A program made the translations under genes and the position numbers. This document shows, one piece after another, positions 159-57,737 of a stretch of DNA of 64,000 nt. The first letter of the stretch is position 1. Each line of letters begins with the position of its first letter. The DNA is from a plasmid. The stretch lies in the sequence record CP113993.1; one strand, 5' to 3'. Below the pieces are notes generated by a model that was not told the origin of the DNA, searched no databases, and worked only from the letters and a program-made list of their open reading frames with translations.

Positions 159-788
159 GTGGATGATCCCGAACAAGCTGGAGAACGCAATATGATGAAA
201 TCAGACGAACAATATCAGGTTCCCGTGTGGATGCGACCTCTGTTGCCGTTGCTCTGCAATACCGGTGGTAATGATCCGGAGGAACTGCTGAATGATACAG
301 AAACCACCGCCAGTGCGAATATTGTCCGTTATGTACTGATAGTTGCAGTGCGGTCGCAGATTGATCTGCTGCAGCTACTGTACAGGAAAGGACTGTTGCG
401 CACAGAGATACCAGGTGGCTTTTCACCGGAAGAAGCGCAGGAACTCCTGGATAATTTGGTGCGCAGCCATATCAGCAAGGCGCTGTCGGGTGAGCGAATG
501 GCAGCCCGTGACAGAAATGCCGATCTGACCTGGATTCGCCAGCAACTGGTCGATGCCGCCTGGTTTGTCCGTGCCACACTGGAAGCGCATGGGATGGGCG
601 TCGGAAATGAGAGTCCCTCTGCTCCGCCGGAGACAATGCCGGACATACAGACACGGGAACTGGTTATGTTGATCAAGCGACTGGCATCATCGCTGAAAGC
701 GGTGAAACCCGACAGTAGCGTGGTGCGTGAAGCGCAGGACTGGCTGTGCGACAGAAAACTTGTGGATATCACAGATATTCTCCGGTGA
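159..788 (+). CDS. hypothetical leading-region protein (209 aa; possible internal start at the MMKSDEQ ATG near 192)
   Basis: Long ORF with plasmid-backbone GC content, co-oriented with ardA. No motif recognised. Confidence 0.4.
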   Translation: MDDPEQAGERNMMKSDEQYQVPVWMRPLLPLLCNTGGNDPEELLNDTETTASANIVRYVLIVAVRSQIDLLQLLYRKGLLRTEIPGGFSPEEAQELLDNLVRSHISKALSGERMAARDRNADLTWIRQQLVDAAWFVRATLEAHGMGVGNESPSAPPETMPDIQTRELVMLIKRLASSLKAVKPDSSVVREAQDWLCDRKLVDITDILR

Positions 789-1250
789 ACCAGACATGTA
801 TATTTTACGCAGGGACACGCCGATCATGATCGTTTCATATCAGGGGTGGTCTGGAGGTCATGCGGCGTGTCCTCTGCACTCGCCGGAATAAGGAAGTCGC
901 CGGCGGCTCCGCTTTTACCCGGCCATGCGGGGCATGGCCTTGTGGGTTTTCAGCTCTGTGGCCTCAGCGTCGTGTGCGGGCTGTGCCGTGCCTCCATCTT
1001 AGCCGGGCTGGCGTTGATGCAAGGGTACGCTTCGCCGCTGCGGTCACCCGGTCCCTCCTTCCCGTCTGCCGTGATTTTCCGGTCGTTCACCCGCTCAGAT
1101 TTCGCGGTCTCACCCTCCAACTCCCGCCAGCCGTGTGCGTCAGGCTGCGGCTTCCCTTGCGCCCTGTGCATCCCCGCCTTATCGCCCGGCTTTTATGGAG
1201 GCACGGCACCGCCCGGTGCCGCAGAACATGTGACTATGGAGGATTCGGGA

Positions 1251-1751
1251 ATGTCTGTTGTTGCACCTGCTGTATACGTTGGAACCTGGCACAAATACAA
1301 CTGTGGAAGCATCGCCGGACGCTGGTTTGACCTGACCACGTTTGATGATGAGCGCGACTTTTTCGCCGCCTGCCGTGCTCTTCACCAGGATGAAGCCGAT
1401 CCTGAACTGATGTTTCAGGATTATGAGGGATTCCCGGGGAATATGGCCTCTGAATGCCATATCAACTGGGCCTGGGTTGAAGGCTTCCGCCAGGCACGGG
1501 ATGAAGGCTGCGAAGAGGCTTATCGTCTCTGGGTGGAGGATACCGGTGAGACGGATTTTGACACCTTCCGCGATGCCTGGTGGGGCGAGGCTGACAGTGA
1601 GGAGGCTTTTGCGGTTGAGTTCGCCAGTGATACCGGCCTGCTGGCTGACGTGCCGGAGACGGTGGCGCTCTATTTTGACTATGAGGCGTATGCGCGGGAT
1701 TTATTCCTGGACTCCTTCACCTTTATTGACGGTCATGTGTTCCGTCGGTGA
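1251..1751 (+). CDS. ardA: antirestriction protein ArdA (type I R-M inhibitor, DNA mimic), ~166 aa
   Basis: N-terminus [38 protein letters not shown] matches my memory of ColIb-P9 ArdA. The protein is very acidic. GGAGG lies 8 nt upstream of the ATG at 1251. The six-frame ORF 846..1751 runs further 5' through GC-rich non-coding-looking sequence. Confidence 0.8.
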
Positions 1752-2099
1752 TTTACTCCCCCGCTCCGGCGGGGGTATGGCCTGCCAGGCCGCCGGAAAA
1801 CCCTGGCAGGCTTACGCCTGCCTGAAATGCAGGAGGGCCGCGCCTGCGGCGCTGCCCTTCCTGCCCGTCATGGTGTGAGGCATTTTTCTGTTATGTCGTT
1901 TCTGTTGTTCTGATTTCCGGAGGCGGGGACACCTTCGGCTCCCGGCTGCCTGGCGGCATCCGGTCGTCAGGCCCGACTCCGACAGGCAGCTGCTGGCGCA
2001 CCCGCCAGTCTCCGCCGAACCCGCTGGCGCGGTTTCGGGCTGCCGCTACGGTCCGATGTCTGAAAAACCAGGCTTGCAGCGACCGTTCCGGTCGCGCCG

Positions 2100-2470
2100 C
2101 CCCTGTCGCGCCGGAAACGGCGCTCCCTGCACACCTGACGGTGTGTAAGGCCACTGCGCCTGATGGCGCAGTCAACCCTTCCGCCGCCACCCCTGCGGCC
2201 TGTTTCCCGCTGTGGACTTTCCGGGGGCTGGAGTAACCACATCCCGTTTCAGCTGTCCAGGGGAAGATATACCGTCCACAAAATTTTTAGCCATAAACCC
2301 GGCAAAAAATTTTGCGTCCGCCCCCGGACAGCTGCCCCGTGACGTGGTGACGGACGCCCCATCGGAAAGGTCCACTGCGGGGAGAAACCCCGAAGAAGTG
2401 GACGGCAGAAGGGGCTTTCGCCCCTCCGGGGAGCAACCGGTCGGCCCGGCGACCTGATTCAGCAGAAGGA
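2100..2470 (+). promoter_or_regulatory. Frpo/ssi-like single-strand promoter repeat, copy A
   Basis: About 340 bp, roughly 85% identical to 4955..5325. It contains the hairpin ACTGCGCC-TGAT-GGCGCAGT and ends at AAGGAG-N7-ATG of the next ORF. IncI1/IncF leading regions carry dispersed Frpo homologues in front of early genes. Confidence 0.6.
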
Positions 2471-2479
2471 GACGTTTTC

Positions 2480-2914
2480 ATGACTGTCAGCAGCACGATT
2501 TCCGTTTTTTGCCGCGACGGGGTGTTCCGTACCGTTTACTGCCACCTGCACGGTGAGCCGACCTGGAACGGTCGCATCCTGCATACCCACTATGCCACCG
2601 GTCAGCAGGCCGAAGCCCTGGTTGAACACGGTGATATCCGTTGCCTCGGTCCCCGTTGCGACAAACCCGCCGGGCATACGCTTCAGAACCCGGTGGACGG
2701 TGTGACGGCTTATTACGGACGTGACAGTGGTTTCCGGATGGACAGTGAGGCGCGTGAGTACCGTTCTTTCAGGGAGGCTATTGCCACTGAAAGCACTGAA
2801 GAGGTGCGCTTCCATTATGTGTTCATCGACGGCTACTGGAAGGTGATGTACCGCACGCCGGAAGGCTGGAAGATGAAAGCGCTCGCGCTGGCACTGCGTC
2901 GCTGTCCGAAATGA
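2480..2914 (+). CDS. hypothetical leading-region protein (144 aa) directly downstream of Frpo-like copy A
   Basis: ORF with RBS AAGGAG. No recognisable domain, and it does not match PsiB despite the same length. Confidence 0.5.
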   Translation: MTVSSTISVFCRDGVFRTVYCHLHGEPTWNGRILHTHYATGQQAEALVEHGDIRCLGPRCDKPAGHTLQNPVDGVTAYYGRDSGFRMDSEAREYRSFREAIATESTEEVRFHYVFIDGYWKVMYRTPEGWKMKALALALRRCPK

Positions 2915-3007
2915 AAAAAAGGCAGGGCGATAAACCCTGCCTCTCTCCGCCGGCGCTTCCCCGCCAGGAAGTCCGGCATCTCAATCACTATCTATGGAGA
3001 TTATGCC

Positions 3008-3274
3008 ATGAGACCATCAATTATCTTCGCAACCGCCGAGTATGTAAAGCGTCTGCGTGAAGAGTGCCTGCGGGAGAATAAACCCCTGCACCGCCATACC
3101 CGCTTCAGACGTCAGGAGCTGGCACAGGATGAGATTAACCCGGACGTCCTGGCGATGAGCGGCCATATCGCCAGACGCTGCAGTGAGCAGAAGCGGGTGC
3201 GTATCCCCGCTATGAAAGTCAGCGAATGGGGCCACCTGCTCCGCGCGCTTGAAATTGAGCGGGTCTGCCACTGA
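3008..3274 (+). CDS. hypothetical small protein (88 aa)
   Basis: ORF only. A basic, cysteine-containing protein. Confidence 0.3.
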   Translation: MRPSIIFATAEYVKRLREECLRENKPLHRHTRFRRQELAQDEINPDVLAMSGHIARRCSEQKRVRIPAMKVSEWGHLLRALEIERVCH

Positions 3275-3338
3275 TTAACCCTTGCCGTCTGCCTGTGCAG
3301 GCGGCAGGATACGTTCAGACATCTCACCAGGAGGAACC

Positions 3339-4253
3339 GTGAGTAAGAAGAAGACCACCACGACGCCCACGCCGCATGATGCCGCGTTCCGGTCGTTCCT
3401 GGCGAATCCCGACGTCGCCAGAGATTTTCTGGAACTGCATCTTCCGGCGGAGTACCGGCAGTTGTGCGACCTGTCCACGCTGAAGCTGGAACCCGCCACC
3501 TTTGTTGAGCCGGACCTGCATCAGTACGCCAGCGATATCCTCTGGAGTGTGAAAACCACCGGGGGTGAAGATGGCTATGTTTATACGCTCATCGAGCACC
3601 AGAGCACCGAAAATCTGTACATGCCTTTCCGCATGTTACGTTACAGTGTGGCGGCGATGCAGAGACATCTGGAGCAGCACAAAACGTTGCCACTGGTCAT
3701 TCCGGTGCTGTTCTATCACGGTGAGCGCAGCCCGTACCCGTACAGCATGAACTGGCTGGACTGTTTTGAGAATCCGGCGCTTGCGGCTAAAATATACACA
3801 AAGCCGTTTCCGCTGGTTGATATCACTGTCGTTGATGACAATGAAATCATGAACCATCGCCGGATGGCCGCACTGACGCTGCTGATGAAGCATATCCGCC
3901 ATCGTGACATGATGGAGCTGCTGGACAAACTCCCGCAGGTCATGGTGGAAATTTCAGACGAGCAGGTGCGTGTTCTGATTCATTACATCGTTAACGCAGG
4001 GGACTCTGTATCACCGGAATTTATGCGGGCGCTGGCTGAGCGTCTGCCGCAGCATGAGGATAAACTGATGACTATCGCAGAACGTCTTGAGCAAAAAGGT
4101 CGCCAGGAAGGCAGGATGGAAGGACGCATGGAAGGAGCGCTTGAAAAAGCCCTGGCTATTGCGTGCCAGCTTCAGAAAATGGGGATGACGCCGGAGCAGA
4201 TTAAGCAGGCTACCGGACTTTCCGATGACGAACTGAAGAAAATCACTCACTGA
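3339..4253 (+). CDS. rpn: Rpn-family (YhgA-like) recombination-promoting nuclease / PD-(D/E)xK 'transposase_31' protein, ~304 aa from GTG
   Basis: Motifs D-x-LW...GYVYTLIEHQS, typical of the Rpn/YhgA PD-(D/E)xK core. C-terminal helical tail. AGGAGG precedes GTG at 3339. Confidence 0.7.
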   Translation: MSKKKTTTTPTPHDAAFRSFLANPDVARDFLELHLPAEYRQLCDLSTLKLEPATFVEPDLHQYASDILWSVKTTGGEDGYVYTLIEHQSTENLYMPFRMLRYSVAAMQRHLEQHKTLPLVIPVLFYHGERSPYPYSMNWLDCFENPALAAKIYTKPFPLVDITVVDDNEIMNHRRMAALTLLMKHIRHRDMMELLDKLPQVMVEISDEQVRVLIHYIVNAGDSVSPEFMRALAERLPQHEDKLMTIAERLEQKGRQEGRMEGRMEGALEKALAIACQLQKMGMTPEQIKQATGLSDDELKKITH

Positions 4254-4314
4254 GTAAACATCACAGCCCGGCAAAATGCCGGGCTTTTTTGTCAGCAGGA
4301 GCAGAGCAAACAGC

Positions 4315-4473
4315 ATGACGATTGCAGAACGTCTTATTCAAAAAGGCGCACTTGAAGTGGCGCGGGAAATAGCCTGCCGGCTGCGGGATATGGGCTGGAC
4401 GCCGGAACGGATTCAGGAGGCAACCGGACTTTCCGGTGAAGAACTGAAAAAGCTGTTTCCTGATGAGCAGTAG
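4315..4473 (+). CDS. Rpn C-terminal-tail paralogue fragment (52 aa)
   Basis: MTIAERLIQKGALEVAREIACRLRDMGWTPERIQEATGLSGEELKK parallels the end of the upstream Rpn protein (MTIAERLEQKG...ALAIACQLQKMGMTPEQIKQATGLSDDELKK). Confidence 0.35.
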   Translation: MTIAERLIQKGALEVAREIACRLRDMGWTPERIQEATGLSGEELKKLFPDEQ

Positions 4474-4503
4474 CCTGGCATTCAGCCAGGCTGTGAATCA
4501 CGC

Positions 4504-4755
4504 TCACACATCCTCTGCCGTTTCCCCCAGTTCATTTTCCAGTCGCCTGATGATATCTGCCTTACGCATCCCCTGCATGTGAGGCAGCAGGTCACGGACT
4601 GAAAGTGCCTGGGTGGTCCTCCAGACGGTGACGTCCACCTGTTCCGCATTTTCCCAGGCGTGCCATGTTCTCTGCGTCACGCCAAATTCTCTGGCCGCTT
4701 TTTCGCGTGACCAGAGCATGCTTTTTCGCCAGATTCGCAGTTCCCAGCCGGTCAT
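4504..4755 (-). CDS. small HTH (XRE/Cro-like) DNA-binding protein, 83 aa
   Basis: LWSREKAAREFGVTQRTWHAWENAE has a helix-turn-helix pattern. Confidence 0.45.
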   Translation of the reverse strand: MTGWELRIWRKSMLWSREKAAREFGVTQRTWHAWENAEQVDVTVWRTTQALSVRDLLPHMQGMRKADIIRRLENELGETAEDV

Positions 4756-4954
4756 AAAACACCTTTGAAAAAGTGAAAAAACTTCACTTTATTTTATCAT
4801 CACAATTGCCAAATCAGCGCGATAAATAAGTGTAAAAAAGTGAAGAAATTTCATTTTTTTTGCTTGTAAATGTCGTGCGGTTTTCTCTGTTTTCACCTGT
4901 GCGGGAGTGGTGTGCCAGTGACCACCACATGCCATTGTTGTGCCGTCGTTTTTC

Positions 4955-5325
4955 TTCAGTCGCGCCGTATGCGGCGCTCCCTGCACACCTTACGGTGTGT
5001 AAGGCCACTGCGCCTGATGGCGCAGCTGTCTCTGCCTGTCTGCCGCCGCACTGCGGCCTGTTCTCCGCAGACGGACTTTCCGGGGGTACATACATGACCA
5101 CATCCCGTTTCAGTCGTCCAGGGGAGAGATGTACCAGCCACAAAACTTTTTGCCGCAGGCGTCAAAAACTTTTGCGTCTGCCCCCGGACAACTGCCCCGT
5201 GACGTGGTGAGCGTCCCCCGTCGGAAAGGTCCACTGCGGGGAAATCCCCGAAGACCCGGACGGCAGAAGGAGCTTCGCTCCTCCGGGAAATGACCTGGCT
5301 GACCCGGCAGTCGTGACGATGAGGA
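4955..5325 (+). promoter_or_regulatory. Frpo/ssi-like single-strand promoter repeat, copy B
   Basis: Paralogue of 2100..2470 in the same orientation. It ends at GAGGAG just before the 5332/5335 start codon. Confidence 0.6.
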
Positions 5326-5331
5326 GACAAT

Positions 5332-6183
5332 GTGATGAATCAGACTTTACCCACTGCTGACCTGAATACTGCCGGCACGACAGATGTTATTCCGTCTGTG
5401 GCTATCGACCGCATCATCGCGCAGCGTAACGAAGGTATTGCACTGTTCATGCAGGCGATGGAATGCCTGGCGACAGCGCGCAAGATTCTGCTCGATGCGT
5501 CAGGTGATATTTTTCTTTACGGGTTTGAAGACTGCGTGACTGATTCCGTTCGTCGCATAGATAAACCGGAAGAAGCGAAAAGGAATATCACCCGTCTTGC
5601 CGACCGGAAAATCTGGGACCGCCTGATGACAGATACGGGCATGTACACCTTCATGAGTTCATGCCAGCGTGATGAGTGGAATAGCCAGCTGATGAGCGAC
5701 ACCTGTCCTGAAATCACCCTGGACAATGTACTGGCAACATTCCGCCATCTGAATGCCAGCAAGATGCAGACATTTGAACAGGGACTGATTGATGTCTACC
5801 GGAAATTGTCATGGGATTACAGAACCAATAATCCCTGCCGTCTGGGCAAGAGAATCATTATTGAAAACATGCTGTACCGCTGGAGTAACGGACGTGTGAC
5901 GCTGGACTGCAGCGGACGGGAGGCACTGGATGACCTGGTACGTCCTTTTTATCTGCTGGAGGGGCGCAACGTTCCTGACTTCCGGAGCAGCATCGGGGCG
6001 CAGTATGGTGAATTTCTCGGGAACGGCGATAATGTCGGTAAGCTGTTAGAAGGGGAATATTTTACGGTGCGTGGCTACCAGAAAGGGACCGTACACATTG
6101 TCTTTAAGCGTTCTGACCTTGTTGAAAAACTGAATGATATTATTGCACGGCATTATCCTGGTGCATTGCCGCCACGAGTCTGA
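5332..6183 (+). CDS. hypothetical leading-region protein (283 aa; start GTG 5332 or ATG 5335) downstream of Frpo-like copy B
   Basis: Long ORF with an RBS. No catalytic motif recognised. Confidence 0.55.
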   Translation: MMNQTLPTADLNTAGTTDVIPSVAIDRIIAQRNEGIALFMQAMECLATARKILLDASGDIFLYGFEDCVTDSVRRIDKPEEAKRNITRLADRKIWDRLMTDTGMYTFMSSCQRDEWNSQLMSDTCPEITLDNVLATFRHLNASKMQTFEQGLIDVYRKLSWDYRTNNPCRLGKRIIIENMLYRWSNGRVTLDCSGREALDDLVRPFYLLEGRNVPDFRSSIGAQYGEFLGNGDNVGKLLEGEYFTVRGYQKGTVHIVFKRSDLVEKLNDIIARHYPGALPPRV

Positions 6184-6269
6184 TTAAACAGAAAAGCCCT
6201 GGTATTTATGCCGGGGCTTTTTTTTTCTGTAATCATCATAATCTCAGAACACGATGTGACATTGTCACA

Positions 6270-6611
6270 TCAATTGTTGTTCATATCGATGCCATCTTTC
6301 CTGCCTGAATCTGTCTTTTTAGGTGCTGTTTTAGAGGAAGAACGGCGGGATGGTTTTTTCGATTCTGCTTCCCGAATAATGTCACGAAGTGCCTTCTCTC
6401 CTACTTCATACCCTGCATTTTTGAGCGTGTCACGAACATCTGCCAGTGTATAACCCTTTGTCCTTACCAGGACAATAATGTCATCACGAATGGCATCAAG
6501 AAAATCACGCAATGTTTTCCGTTGAGCGGTGAGGTCCGGCAATTCCGATAAAGCAGCTTTTGCCAGCTGGATGTCATCATCTGAGTAAAATTTTTTAGAA
6601 GCCATTGGCAC
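6270..6611 (-). CDS. hypothetical protein with a basic lysine/serine-rich C-terminal tail (113 aa), divergent from nikA across oriT
   Basis: ORF only. The C-terminus KKPSRRSSSKTAPKKTDSGRK suggests nucleic-acid binding. Confidence 0.45.
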   Translation of the reverse strand: MPMASKKFYSDDDIQLAKAALSELPDLTAQRKTLRDFLDAIRDDIIVLVRTKGYTLADVRDTLKNAGYEVGEKALRDIIREAESKKPSRRSSSKTAPKKTDSGRKDGIDMNNN

Positions 6612-6755
6612 TTTCTCTCCGTTTAATGTTGAAGCCTGATTTTATCACCAAAAACTGACTCCTGGCAGGGCTGCGCCCTGCCTCTGCCGTCTGCATAAGA
6701 CTATGATGCACAAAAATAACAGGCTATAATGGCCTGAAAAACGGGACAGGATGTG

Positions 6756-6838: not shown

Positions 6839-7171
6839 GTGAGTGATAGTGCGGTAAGAAAGAAAAGTGAGGTACGGCAAAAGACAGTTGTCAGGACACT
6901 CAGATTCTCTCCTGTTGAGGATGAAACCATCAGGAAAAAAGCTGAAGATTCCGGACTTACTGTATCTGCTTACATCCGAAATGCAGCACTGAATAAGCGA
7001 ATTAACTCCCGTACAGATGATGCTTTTCTGAAGGAGTTAATGAGACTGGGAAGGATGCAGAAGCATCTGTTTGTTCAGGGAAAAAGAACCGGTGACAAGG
7101 AATACGCAGAAGTGCTTGTTGCCATAACCGAACTTACAAATACATTGCGTAAACAGTTAATGGAAGGTTGA
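6839..7171 (+). CDS. nikA: relaxosome accessory protein NikA (ribbon-helix-helix, MobC-like), 110 aa from GTG
   Basis: AAGGAG-N8-GTG at 6839, in frame with the 6791 ORF. Motif RFSPVEDETIRKKAEDSGLTVSAYIRNAAL is typical of RHH mobilisation proteins. Size and position match R64 nikA. Confidence 0.75.
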   Translation: MSDSAVRKKSEVRQKTVVRTLRFSPVEDETIRKKAEDSGLTVSAYIRNAALNKRINSRTDDAFLKELMRLGRMQKHLFVQGKRTGDKEYAEVLVAITELTNTLRKQLMEG

Positions 7172-7181
7172 GGATTCTCCT

Positions 7182-9881
7182 GTGAATGCAGTCATTCCGA
7201 AAAAGAGAAGGGACGGCAAGTCTTCGTTCGAAGACCTGGTATCCTACGTCTCTGTCCGGGATGACATGACCGATGAGGAACTGGATTTATCTTCTTCTTC
7301 GCAGGCTGAACAACCGCACCGAAGCCGTTTCAGTCGCCTTGTTGATTATGCGACACGTCTTCGAAATGAGTCATTCGTGGCGCTGGTTGATGTCATGAAG
7401 GACGGCTGCGAATGGATCAACTTTTATGGTGTCACCTGCTTTCATAACTGTACTTCTCTTGAAACTGCCGCTGCAGATATGGAGTACATTGCCCTGCAGG
7501 CACACTATGCAAAAGATGACACTGATCCTGTTTTTCACTACATCCTTTCCTGGCAGTCACATGAAAGCCCGCGTCCGGAACAGATTTATGACAGTGTACG
7601 TCATACGCTGAAATCACTCGGCCTTGCCGACCATCAGTATGTCTCTGCCGTGCATACTGATACAGATAATCTGCACGTCCATGTGGCTGTTAACCGGGTA
7701 CACCCTGAAACGGGTTATCTGAACCGGTTATCCTGGAGTCAGGAAAAACTCAGTCGTGCCTGCCGTGAGCTTGAACTGAAGCATGGTTTTGCTCCGGATA
7801 ACGGTTGCTGGGTCCATGCACCGGGAAATCGTATCGTTCGCAAAACCGCCGTTGAACGTGATCGCCAGAACGCGTGGACACGCGGGAAAAAACAAACTTT
7901 TCGCGAGTATGTCGCGCAGACAGCGGTCGCTGGTTTACGCAGTGAACCTGTAAGTGACTGGTTATCCCTGCATCGTCGTCTTGCGGAAGATGGTCTGTAC
8001 CTGTCTCAGATGGACGGAAAATATCTGGTGATGGATGGCTGGGATCGCAACAGGGAAGGTGTACAGCTTGACTCGTTTGGTCCCTCCTGGTGTGCAGAAA
8101 AACTCATGAAAAAAATGGGTGACTACACGCCAGTACCAAAAGACATTTTCAGCCAGGTGGAAGCACCAGGACGCTATAATCCGGACTTCATTGCAGCTGA
8201 TGTTCGCCCGGAAAAAATCGCTGAAACAGAAAGTCTGCAGCAGTATGCCTGTCGTCATCTTGGAGAACGTCTGCCGGAAATGGCACGGGAAGGACGGCTG
8301 GAAAACTGCCAGGCTATTCACCGCACACTGGCTGAAGCGGGTTTATGGATGCGTGTTCAGCATGGTCACCTGGTTATCTGTGACGGTTATGATCATAACC
8401 AGACTCCCGTTCGTGCTGACAGCGTATGGTCACTGCTGACGCTCGACAATGTGAATCAACTCGATGGTGGCTGGCTGCCTGTACCAACAGATATTTTCCG
8501 CCAGGTTACGCCAACAGAACGCTTCCGTGGTCGTCGTATGGAGAGCTGTCCTGCGACCGATAAAGAATGGCACCGTATGCGTACAGGCACGGGGCCGCAG
8601 GGGGCTATCAAACGCGAACTGTTTTCTGACAAAGAAAGTCTGTGGGGATACAGCATCAGCCATTGTAGCCCTCAGATTGAAGAAATGATCACACAGGGTG
8701 AGTTTACCTGGCAGCGTTGTCATGAGCTGTTTGCACAACAGGGACTGATGCTACAGAAACAACATCACGGGCTTGTTGTCGTTGATGCCTTTAATCATGA
8801 GCAAACGCCGGTGAAGGCCAGCAGCATTCATCCTGATCTGACACTGGGGCGTGCAGAGCCACAGGCCGGACCTTTTGTGAGTGCCCCAGCAGATTTGTTT
8901 GACAGGGTGCAACCTGAAAGTCGCTATAACCCGGAGCTGGCTGTCAGTGACAGGTACGGGGTCAGCAGTAAACGTGACCCAATGCTGCGCCGGCAGCGAC
9001 GTGAAGCCAGAGCTGAGGCCCGTGCTGACCTGCGTGCCCGCTATCTGGCATGGCGTGAACAATGGCGTAAACCAGATCTGCGTTATGGGGAACGTTGTCG
9101 GGAAATTCATCAGGCATGCCGTCTGCGGAAGTCACACATTCGTGCGCAGTACGATGATCCGGCATTACGTAAGCTGCATTATCACATTGCAGAAGTTCAG
9201 CGAATGCAGGCATTGATCAGGCTGAAAGAAGACATCAGGGATGAGCGACAGAAACTTATTGCTGACGGGAAATGGTATCCACCCTCTTACCGTCAGTGGG
9301 TCGAAATTCAGGCTGCTCAGGGAGACAGGGCTGCTGTATCGCAGCTGAGAGGCTGGGATTATCGCGATCGCCGTAAAGACAGGTCACGCACAACGACGAC
9401 AGACCGCTGTGTCGTGCTTTGTGAACCGGGCGGAACGCCGGTATACGGTAATACCGGTGATCTCGAGGCCCGTCTGCAGAAGAACGGGAGTGTTCGTTTC
9501 CGTGACCGTCGGACGGGAGAGTTTGTCTGTACGGATTATGGTGACAGGGTTGTTTTCCGTAATCACCATGACCGCAATGCGCTGGCAGATAAACTGGATT
9601 TGATTGCACCGGTATTATTCGGGCGTGATCCACGCATGGGTTTTGAACCAGAAGGAAACGACAAACAATTTAACCAGGTCTTTGCTGAAATGGTTGCCTG
9701 GCATAATGTGACAGGCCGTACCGGTCACGAAGACTACAGGATTACGCGACCGGACGTGGATCATCACCGTGAAGGAAGTGAACGCTACTACCGCGATTAT
9801 ATCGCGGCGAACAGCAACGATGACGCATCACTGCCTCCGCCGGAGCAGGATAAACGCTGGGAACCGCCTTCTCCAGGTTAA
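7182..9881 (+). CDS. nikB: relaxase NikB (MOBP family), 899 aa
   Basis: Relaxase motif III HTDTDNLHVHVAVNRV (HxDxxxxHxHxxxN). Length and position after nikA as in R64. Confidence 0.85.
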   Translation: MNAVIPKKRRDGKSSFEDLVSYVSVRDDMTDEELDLSSSSQAEQPHRSRFSRLVDYATRLRNESFVALVDVMKDGCEWINFYGVTCFHNCTSLETAAADMEYIALQAHYAKDDTDPVFHYILSWQSHESPRPEQIYDSVRHTLKSLGLADHQYVSAVHTDTDNLHVHVAVNRVHPETGYLNRLSWSQEKLSRACRELELKHGFAPDNGCWVHAPGNRIVRKTAVERDRQNAWTRGKKQTFREYVAQTAVAGLRSEPVSDWLSLHRRLAEDGLYLSQMDGKYLVMDGWDRNREGVQLDSFGPSWCAEKLMKKMGDYTPVPKDIFSQVEAPGRYNPDFIAADVRPEKIAETESLQQYACRHLGERLPEMAREGRLENCQAIHRTLAEAGLWMRVQHGHLVICDGYDHNQTPVRADSVWSLLTLDNVNQLDGGWLPVPTDIFRQVTPTERFRGRRMESCPATDKEWHRMRTGTGPQGAIKRELFSDKESLWGYSISHCSPQIEEMITQGEFTWQRCHELFAQQGLMLQKQHHGLVVVDAFNHEQTPVKASSIHPDLTLGRAEPQAGPFVSAPADLFDRVQPESRYNPELAVSDRYGVSSKRDPMLRRQRREARAEARADLRARYLAWREQWRKPDLRYGERCREIHQACRLRKSHIRAQYDDPALRKLHYHIAEVQRMQALIRLKEDIRDERQKLIADGKWYPPSYRQWVEIQAAQGDRAAVSQLRGWDYRDRRKDRSRTTTTDRCVVLCEPGGTPVYGNTGDLEARLQKNGSVRFRDRRTGEFVCTDYGDRVVFRNHHDRNALADKLDLIAPVLFGRDPRMGFEPEGNDKQFNQVFAEMVAWHNVTGRTGHEDYRITRPDVDHHREGSERYYRDYIAANSNDDASLPPPEQDKRWEPPSPG

Positions 9882-15826: not shown

Positions 15827-16300
15827 GGTAATTATCGAACTGAGTGCGCCATTCTTTTCAGGAGACGGCAAATTAGAGATGGTTGGTTCAGGTTCAGAGC
15901 ATGAGTTTCCTGGTGTGGCGGACATGCCGGGGTGGATTTTGCAGAGATAACAGATGTAAAAAAACCGACTGGTGAGGTCGGTTTTTTTACTGTTCCGCTA
16001 CAGAGTTGGTGACTCTGGACGGGAAAAGACAGTCTGTATCTAACATGATCAATTCTATGCTTTGTCCCGCACTATGTCAAAAATCCTGCTAATCAAGTAG
16101 TATACAAAACGTTAGCTCTACTGATTGTCTGAACTCGACAACTGACGGATTTGTTAAGTCCTGGCCGGGATAACAGGTGGTGCTGCTTCCGGTGCTCTGG
16201 TCGGAGTGAGGCAGTCTGTATCTAACAATAGAGACAACCGTAGTGACAGGCAGCCCATGAGTAAGCTGCGGTGTTTCGCTCCCTTATCAAGGGAAAACGG

Positions 16301-57428: not shown

Positions 57429-57470
57429 GCTATCACCGAGTTCCTACGCTCATTGGTGATAGCCCAGACG
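57429..57470 (-). terminator. intrinsic terminator/attenuator hairpin (9-bp stem GCTATCACC/GGTGATAGC followed by a T-run) in the leader of the LuxR-type gene
   Basis: Perfect inverted repeat plus GTTTTTAG in the minus-strand sense. Confidence 0.45.
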
Positions 57471-57737
57471 GGGGTAGGAATACCGGCGTCATCGGAAACC
57501 GGCCAGGCTAATGCCTGCCCCGCCTGAGCTACCATAGATGACGACAAGAAATACAAGTTCCTGTCTTTATGGTATGGCAAAAAACGACGCCAAATGAAGA
57601 AATTAACTTCTGCGCCGACGATGACTACGCGGGTTCCTACGCCCGATCACAGTTTTGCCTGTGACCAGTAAAGGGTACTTAGTATAACGCACCGAGTCAA
57701 CTAACAGCTTAAAAAACATACAAAAAAGCGTCAAAAC

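Follow-up and report, generated by a model that had tools for sequence, protein, structure and literature searches.

Near-identical copies of the ColIb-P9 elements ssi1 and ssi2 as probable single-strand DNA promoters in the leading region of an IncI-complex plasmid

The DNA analysed here, a 64-kb stretch hereafter called the window, includes the leading region of an IncI-complex plasmid. This region holds two co-oriented repeats that are very probably class 1 single-strand DNA (ssDNA) promoters (a probability of about 0.93): ssi1, located before ydiA, and ssi2, located before an ORF of 144 residues, an ORF of 88 residues, and a gene for an Rpn nuclease. As judged by sequence identity, both repeats are near-identical copies of the published ssi1 and ssi2, and the elements themselves are already known.

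The repeat pair and its published counterparts

The two segments had been described in the first-pass annotation as co-oriented paralogues of approximately 85% identity, and this relationship is recovered at 81.8% over 335 columns by blastn (2105-2430 against 4959-5287; E = 2e-84) and at 82.9% over the 321 aligned bases of the MAFFT core. No further copy was detected by blastn in the 64-kb window, and in related plasmids a third copy is located just left of it, upstream of ssb. The homologous unit comprises approximately 326–329 nt. It had been proposed to end exactly at the ribosome-binding sites (RBSs), but homology stops 35–50 nt before them, and the stretches up to each start codon (2431-2479 and 5288-5331) are non-homologous. 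In the case of ssi2, the repeat held in common with the ssb-proximal copy reaches approximately 170 nt further upstream, to around position 1933.

Comparison with characterized plasmids assigns the minus strand of 2103..2428 to ssi2 (the "Frpo2" of ColIb-P9) and that of 4957..5285 to ssi1 ("Frpo1"). Using the ColIb-P9 sequences given in Supplementary Table 2 of PMC11541004 (Samuel et al. 2024), ssi2 exhibits 99.4% identity over 326/326 nt (AJ238399.1:4353-4678) and ssi1 exhibits 99.1% over 329/329 nt (AJ238399.1:1459-1787), and the identities to the copies of pESBL are 99.7% and 99.1%, respectively. Both repeats are 80–87% identical to ColIb-P9 Frpo3 and 74–78% identical to the core of F ssiD. 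The suggestion that they are single-strand promoters of the Frpo/ssi type is thus corroborated by the alignment with the F and ColIb-P9 elements, over the full length of ssi1 and ssi2 and in the orientation that had been deduced. The genes expected behind the ColIb-P9 elements were ssb, psiB, and ardA, of which only ssb stands, behind ssi3. There, psiB follows ssb, also behind ssi3, ssi2 precedes the 144-residue ORF, and ssi1 precedes ydiA, whereas ardA has its own hairpin, of "class 2", unrelated to the ssi repeats. The elements ssi1 and ssi2 of ColIb-P9 were reportedly described by Bates et al. in 1999.

The correspondence with ColIb-P9 extends to the distance from nic, the downstream genes, the gene order, and the orientation, and the elements differ from their counterparts by 2–3 base substitutions only. 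ColIb-P9 is an IncI1 plasmid, whereas the present plasmid types as IncI-gamma/K1-like, as judged by its closest small relative. The class 1 ssDNA promoters of pESBL-EA11 are likewise embedded in the same gene order with the same flanking genes, although that plasmid holds one additional ORF of 129 residues between the 88-residue ORF and the Rpn gene. More distant are Frpo1 (ssiD) and Frpo2 of F (Masai & Arai 1997; Couturier et al. 2023), which resemble the repeats in their leading-region site and orientation, in the A/T-rich apex, the 9–10-nt bulge, and the GTCCGGGGG/CCCCTGGAC stem, and in the outermost small upstream hairpin (93% over 29 nt). However, the identity is only 74–78% over 58–116 nt of the apex, the outer stem sequences are unlike, and the genes downstream in F are ygeA/ygeB (DUF932) and ssb rather than ydiA or the 144-residue gene. 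Finally, the class 2 (ssp2) ssDNA promoter found upstream of ardA and klcA, whose hairpin is located at 889-1231 of the window, is also a long transferred-strand hairpin before a leading gene, but its sequence does not resemble that of the two repeats, and its fold signal is weaker (z = -4.4). It has been reported to serve also as a replication roadblock (2026 preprint).

Plasmids bearing the element number at least 5,000 in PLSDB. That the repeats might instead be decayed coding sequence or fragments of insertion sequences is suggested by mechanical ORFs of 59–124 residues that overlap them on both strands, but the pattern of divergence makes this origin extremely improbable. Each of the eight indel runs that separate the copies (8/8) is 1, 2 or 5 nt in length, with no multiple of three; the 55 mismatches are spread 18/19/18 over the three column phases; stop codons interrupt 11 of the 12 frame-by-copy combinations; and the region carries no annotation in thousands of public records. 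Across the copies, no reading frame was found to be conserved with a bias at third positions.

Transferred strand and hairpin structure

The polarity of transfer can be read directly from the sequence, where the P-type nick motif of oriT, CATCCTG|TCCCGT, lies on the minus strand at 6741..6753. The consensus YATCCTG|Y is well established for oriT of the RP4/R64 type. The nick separates 6747 from 6746, so that the transferred strand, starting from its 5' end, extends towards lower coordinates; nikA is located at 6839 and nikB at 7182. The far end of ssi1 lies 1,789 nt from nic, compared to coordinate 1787 in AJ238399. With the motif on the minus strand and the nick at 6746/6747, the minus strand is the one transferred, and it serves as a template for the genes downstream of both repeats, all of which are on the plus strand and point towards oriT, as the first-pass annotation had deduced.

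When folded as minus-strand DNA, both repeats form the long imperfect hairpin anticipated for them, of approximately 240 nt, with minimum free energies (MFE) of -112.5 kcal/mol for ssi2 (z = -8.9) and -109.0 kcal/mol for ssi1 (z = -9.0), and none of 100 shuffles was as stable (0/100). The complementary plus strand reaches -101.7 kcal/mol for ssi2 (z = -7.4) and -89.6 kcal/mol for ssi1 (z = -5.3), which leaves the transferred strand 11–19 kcal/mol more stable. The minus-strand MFE structures hold seven G.T pairs per copy, and those of the plus strand hold 0 and 3. The active form of ssi2 is the transferred (minus) strand.

The main imperfect hairpin of ssi2, defined by MFE structures and by covariation in 10 relatives, comprises 238 nt of the minus strand (2176..2413). 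Its apical stem is A/T-rich and flanks the apical loop at 2292-2301; a bulge of 9 nt occupies 2264-2272 (minus-strand sequence GTATATCTT), and the conserved CCCCTGGAC / GTCCGGGGG stem includes a G.T wobble. Three small hairpins are predicted at its promoter-upstream edge, also on the minus strand (2108-2123, 2126-2150, and 2153-2172), and this segment (2108..2172) is the best conserved between the two copies (94%). In the folds of ssi1 on the same strand, the core of the main hairpin (5072..5233) consists of 61 pairs with an apical loop at 5155-5160, and three small upstream hairpins occupy 4962-5026.

The conservation of this structure was evaluated in ten relatives (ssi1-3, Frpo1/2 of F, and candidates from Serratia, an insect metagenome, and S. 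enterica). These sequences came from Supplementary Table 2 of Samuel 2024 as well as from the window, ColIb-P9, and F. Across them, 91% of the cells are paired, compared to 37–52% with slid partners, and 13 of 26 pairs exhibit compensatory changes, compared to 2–6 with slid partners; these values were reached by 0 of 500 shuffles. A pattern scan of a genome collection (596 Gb) with TGTCCGGGGGN{50,80}CCCTGGAC, a pattern too short for this purpose, yielded nothing but chance matches, the majority of them in unrelated and often high-GC genomes.

These structural features bear on two other explanations. First, the structure could act as RNA, in a long folded leader at the 5' end of the plus-strand mRNA (for instance, a riboregulator or thermosensor). 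The plus strand does fold better than its shuffles, as is expected of any inverted repeat, but its lower stability, the replacement of conserved minus-strand G.T pairs by C.A, which does not pair, on the sense strand, and the lack of any matching Rfam family render such a role hardly credible. Furthermore, an mRNA initiated within the stem would hold one arm only. Second, the repeats could have no role as promoters and be passive scars left by recombination, or mark the boundaries of modules in a mobile leading-region cassette. One plasmid lacking the 9.7-kb segment between the outer repeats keeps a single hybrid repeat, which fits recombination between copies (PMC3817090). Nevertheless, recombination between repeats would not explain why stability differs between the strands, why the G.T wobbles are conserved, or why distant relatives exhibit compensatory changes, and it would not explain the published promoter activity either. 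The arms of the hairpin are not free to diverge, and compensatory change is observed instead, so this explanation is very unlikely.

Promoter activity and proposed mechanism

Promoter activity has been experimentally characterized in close relatives. In pESBL, RNA-seq revealed that six leading operons, three of them driven from ssi1-3, are induced by up to approximately 500-fold at 15 min, with starts mapped by 5'-RACE (Wen 2025, PMC12672017), and in F the deletion of Frpo1/2 abolishes the early expression of downstream protein fusions (PMC9849209). Polymerase binding, induction kinetics, and start sites would be carried over to the present elements by analogy with copies of 99% identity, and the 1–3 base differences from the experimentally tested copies could in principle matter.

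Within the repeats, a simple consensus scan found no sigma-70 site in or just upstream of either of them as linear duplex, an absence that is weak evidence by itself. No -35/-10 candidate was found at 9/12 matches, and a relaxed scan yielded position-conserved candidates with 7–8/12 matches only, in several mutually exclusive registers; the candidates include TTGTGG-N16-TGGACA, TGGACA-N17-TTACTC, and a promoter on the 5' arm. Neither the hexamers nor the start-site coordinates of these elements were found in the accessible published text or supplements. The apex sequence AAAAATTTTGT resembles the distal UP-element consensus.

According to the proposed mechanism, the minus strand nicked at 6746/6747 would enter the recipient with its 5' end first, bringing in the antisense of ydiA, then ssi1 (approximately 1.5–1.8 kb in), and then ssi2 (approximately 4.3–4.6 kb in). 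Once fully entered, each element is expected to self-fold into the imperfect hairpin, the stem of which would mimic duplex promoter DNA. The host sigma-70 RNA polymerase, acting on this stem, would transcribe the transferred strand towards its 5' end, so that the sense mRNA of the plus-strand genes would be made before the complementary strand exists. Synthesis of the complementary strand would later flatten the hairpin into a duplex with no recognisable promoter, switching expression off, and the outcome would be a short pulse of early proteins. The same hairpin transcripts may also prime the synthesis of the complementary strand.

This last activity has its own explanatory weight, since the ssi elements could be mainly priming signals, where the hairpin RNA stays hybridised and primes DNA synthesis, with gene expression as a by-product. 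The name "ssi" derives from priming assays; Frpo RNA primes DNA synthesis in vitro, according to the summary of Masai & Arai 1997 in PMC7690428; and rifampicin-sensitive early conversion events have been reported in vivo near ssp1/Frpo promoters (2026 preprint). However, each copy stands directly before an RBS and an ORF, and the effect of the Frpo deletion and the induction of whole operons described above argue in the same direction. For these reasons, priming is best seen as a second function of the promoters rather than as an alternative, and elements devoted mainly to priming seem improbable.

Genes behind the repeats

The first gene behind ssi2 (2480..2914, plus strand; RBS AAGGAG at 2466-2471) encodes the 144-residue protein, which holds the legacy database name "PndC". 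It is followed on the same strand by the 88-residue ORF (3008-3274) and the gene of the Rpn/YhgA-like nuclease (3339-4253). Both (3008..4253) are presumed to be part of the ssi2 transcription unit, as inferred because they are co-oriented and no T-tailed terminator occurs earlier, and the next terminator-like hairpin lies after the Rpn gene, at 4265-4285. On the other hand, ssi1 has a single gene behind it, ydiA (DUF4942; 5335..6183, plus strand; RBS GAGGAG at 5321-5326), which enters the recipient ahead of every other protein gene and is followed by a terminator-like hairpin at 6190-6223. The first-pass annotation had started this gene at GTG 5332, for a product of 283 residues; the RefSeq start is ATG 5335, which yields 282 residues.

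Two existing labels of these proteins do not hold. PndC denotes the mok-like leader ORF of the pnd/hok killer locus, but no overlapping toxin gene of the Hok/Gef family accompanies the 144-residue protein: there is no Hok-like ORF overlapping or following 2480-2914, and none of the ORFs nearby matches the Pfam family Hok_Gef. In ColIb-P9 and pESBL, the Hok/Gef-family genes are annotated across oriT, beyond trbA. Some YdiA/DUF4942 proteins hold a UniProt-derived label of DNA methyltransferase, and a SAM-binding Rossmann fold with a catalytic (D/N)PP(Y/F/W) motif was not found. Similarly, ygeB (orf273) of F is not a homologue of YdiA, as it belongs to DUF932.

The 144-residue protein is a member of a widespread family with no Pfam model, the conserved positions of which include Y20, H22, G25, H66, Y79, R81, D82, Y113, and W120. 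The structure models of this protein and YdiA are confident and match no solved structure; that of the former is a confidently folded globular domain with a fold common to proteins of large phages. The conserved His, Arg, and Asp positions are suggestive of an enzyme or of a pocket that binds a ligand. Searches with PADLOC, NCBIfam, and PDB sequences gave no useful match, and the surroundings of two distant homologues of the 144-residue protein revealed no hairpin of class 1 or class 2.

Both proteins represent large, uncharacterized families enriched in leading regions (families 23 and 24 in Samuel 2024). An anti-defence role, as suggested in the first-pass annotation, would be reasonable for them and is in line with the existing literature. 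The more specific proposal that they are new effectors of counter-defence or host takeover, made within seconds of DNA entry, is tentative and at present rather doubtful.

The contribution of the window is therefore one of annotation, where unannotated elements are exact orthologues of experimentally characterized promoters, and any novelty would lie in the cargo (the 144-residue protein and YdiA) and not in the promoter elements. The function of the two driven genes, which represent conserved families with no counterpart of solved structure, is the part still worth following. Single-strand promoters let conjugative plasmids express anti-restriction, SOS-inhibition, and other establishment genes ahead of host defences, and for this reason they are important in the spread of resistance plasmids.

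Plasmid setting and identity of the repeat pair

The window comes from a conjugative plasmid of the IncI complex and covers its leading and transfer regions. Over its initial 8 kb it matches large Salmonella plasmids at 100% identity, and an E. coli plasmid of 82.6 kb (IncI-gamma/K1, MOBP, MPF_I) at 99.9%. The plus-strand genes nikA (6839) and nikB (7182) are flanked directly on their left by the inverted repeat of oriT and a minus-strand MobC-like gene (6270–6605). Direct reading of the sequence locates CATCCTG|TCCCGT at 6753–6741 of the minus strand, the P-type nick motif by the consensus known from RP4/R64-type oriT. The minus strand is therefore cut between 6747 and 6746, entering the recipient 5' end first, towards lower coordinates. 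With two exceptions, an HTH regulator and a small hypothetical ORF, the leading genes within 190–6183 are all on the plus strand and so have the transferred strand as template, as the first-pass annotation had correctly stated.

The two paralogous repeats described in that annotation are real. Blastn aligns 2105–2430 with 4959–5287 at 81.8% identity (E = 2e-84) and finds no further copy in the window, and a MAFFT alignment of the two cores gives 82.9% identity across 321 aligned bases. The copies had been said to end exactly at the ribosome-binding sites of the ORFs behind them; the homology stops 35–50 nt short of each site, and the second ORF, placed at 5332, starts in RefSeq at ATG 5335. 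An origin as fragments of a coding sequence is made very unlikely by the eight indel runs between the copies, all of 1, 2 or 5 nt, by the even spread of the 55 mismatches across the three phases (18/19/18), and by stop codons in 11 of the 12 frame-by-copy combinations; the repeats are thus non-coding.

Five reference Frpo/ssi sequences are given in Supplementary Table 2 of Samuel et al. 2024 (PMC11541004). Among them, ColIb-P9 'Frpo1' (ssi1) is 99.1% identical to 4957–5285 (minus strand) across 329/329 nt, and ColIb-P9 'Frpo2' (ssi2) is 99.4% identical to 2103–2428 (minus strand) across 326/326 nt; the reference coordinates of the two (1459–1787 and 4353–4678, in a record numbered from oriT) agree with the nick-site distances in the window. 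These full-length alignments support the proposal of Frpo/ssi-type promoters, and by sequence the repeats are assigned to elements already known and named, ssi1 and ssi2. ColIb-P9 also shares the gene order: ssb, a ParB-like gene, psiB, psiA, ardA, a 144-aa ORF, an 88-aa ORF, Rpn, the opposite-strand HTH gene, a DUF4942 gene and nikA. Its elements had been expected before ssb, psiB and ardA, which holds for ssb (ssi3), while ssi2 and ssi1 precede the 144-aa ORF and the DUF4942 gene instead. The third copy falls immediately to the left of the window, outside it. By comparison, the F core (ssiD = Frpo1) is only 74–78% identical to the repeats, over the apical 58–116 nt, and in F, Frpo1 and Frpo2 are found upstream of ygeA/ygeB and of ssb.

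Hairpin structure and candidate promoter registers

Both repeats form the long imperfect hairpin expected on the bottom strand. Predicted minus-strand DNA folds reach -112.5 kcal/mol (z = -8.9) for ssi2 and -109.0 kcal/mol (z = -9.0) for ssi1, and are dominated by an imperfect hairpin of about 240 nt (2176–2413 in ssi2, minus strand, apex 2292–2301). This hairpin comprises an A/T-rich apical stem, a 3'-arm bulge of 9–10 nt, several internal loops, and a conserved GTCCGGGGG/CCCCTGGAC helix with a G.T wobble. Folds of the complementary strand are weaker (-101.7 kcal/mol for ssi2, -89.6 for ssi1) and contain 0 and 3 G.T pairs, against seven in each minus-strand structure. Such an asymmetry between the strands is what one would predict if selection acted on the transferred strand and not on an mRNA.

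Across ten relatives (ssi1–3, F Frpo1/2, one Serratia, two insect-metagenome and two S. enterica candidates), RNAalifold predicted 26 shared pairs, with 91% of cells paired and compensatory changes in 13 of the 26, against 37–52% and 2–6 when the partners were slid; none of 500 shuffles reached the observed values. Ten sequences are a small sample, and the structure was predicted from the very alignment tested, so the slid-partner control is the more meaningful one. Two G.T wobbles are conserved in 7–8 of the ten. In the bulge (2264–2272 in ssi2, with an equivalent in ssi1), nine of the ten share an AT dinucleotide (CAT; TAT in ssi2), the Serratia copy being unaligned at that point. Conservation of these bases despite their being unpaired suggests that the bulge is read by sequence. 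At the promoter-upstream edge, three small hairpins (2108–2172 in ssi2, 4962–5026 in ssi1) form the most conserved portion between the two copies (94%); the outermost of the three also precedes Frpo1 and Frpo2 of F, at 93% identity across 29 nt.

A consensus scan found no sigma-70-like site in either repeat, which is weakly consistent with silence as duplex DNA. By geometry, the 3' arm, read from apex to base, should serve as the non-template strand. It offers two candidate -35/-10 registers: TTGTGG-N16/17-TGGACA, which looks physically awkward because the bulge falls inside the spacer, and TGGACA-N16/17-TTACTC, with an internal loop at -10. Further candidate registers compete with these. By our own comparison with the established consensus for the distal UP element, AAAWWTWTTTT, the apical AAAAATTTTGT agrees with it in 10 of 11 positions.

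Other elements of the leading region

The hairpin found before ardA (1251–1751), at 889–1231 (minus strand; -96.3 kcal/mol, z = -4.4), is a second long transferred-strand structure of another type, unrelated to the repeats. It shares 97% identity with the pESBL copy before ardA, 95% with the one before a klcA-like gene and 81% with the candidate 'Frpo' 4' of Samuel, and is the ssDNA promoter published as 'class 2'/ssp2. Between ardA and ssi2, the non-coding stretch 1752–2102 is likewise strongly structured when folded as the transferred strand (-104.3 kcal/mol, z = -6.0). Its rightmost 170 nt recur at 97% upstream of ssi3 in pESBL, which brings the repeat unit common to ssi2 and ssi3 to about 500 nt, longer than that of ssi1.

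A 65-aa ORF at 4276–4473 is a duplicate of the C-terminal piece of the adjacent Rpn gene, with 75–84% DNA repeats with 4068–4240 and a weak match to the C-terminus of TIGR01784. The HTH regulator (4504–4755) cannot be read from the entering strand, because it lies on the strand opposite to the leading genes; its family is aca6-like for a few members in Samuel 2024 (PMC11541004). The A/T-rich direct and inverted repeat pair next to it (4757–4861) probably serves this regulator as operator and promoter. Unrelated to the repeats, Rfam matches that pass the gathering score are a C4 antisense RNA (57452–57539, 77.5 bits) and AgrB (15956–16043, minus strand, 57 bits).

Downstream genes and early expression

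The 144-aa protein (2480–2914) matched no Pfam or NCBIfam model, and its database name is 'post-segregation killing protein PndC'. This identity is rejected, since no hok-type toxin gene was found among the ORFs and Pfam matches at the locus and the protein is globular and well-folded; the name looks like a legacy error, propagated by misannotation. A full HMMER search gave 1,981 representative homologues, with conserved positions including Y20, H22, G25, H66, Y79, R81, D82, Y113 and W120, and likeness limited to uncharacterised large-phage proteins (phrog_1987, phrog_23089). One distant homologue adjoins two ArdC-type genes and a CbtA toxin, and another sits amid small early-type genes on a 235-kb phage-like contig. 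YdiA, the DUF4942 protein, is family 24 in Samuel 2024 (PMC11541004), at median position 1 from oriT, and its 'methyltransferase' label probably derives from phage fusion proteins. A literature search found no paper characterising either protein; by association, both may plausibly have an anti-defence role.

Masai & Arai 1997, as relayed in PMC9849209 and PMC7690428, showed in vitro that the Frpo hairpin acts as a promoter and supplies primers. In transconjugants, fusions placed downstream lose their early expression when Frpo1 or Frpo2 is deleted (PMC9849209). An evolution study speaks of 'three operons transcribed by ssi3-1' in the leading region (PMC10104558). For pESBL, an IncI1 plasmid, RNA-seq performed once the donors had been eliminated showed that six operons of the leading region are induced, by as much as ~500-fold at 15 min, three under ssi1–3 ('class 1'), two under 'class 2', a distinct hairpin upstream of klcA and ardA, and one under a third type, with the start sites of all six located by 5'-RACE (PMC12672017). 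Identity between the pESBL elements and those in the window is 99.7% for ssi2 and 99.1% for ssi1, and their flanking genes are identical in kind; therefore, the pESBL experiments apply almost directly to this plasmid.
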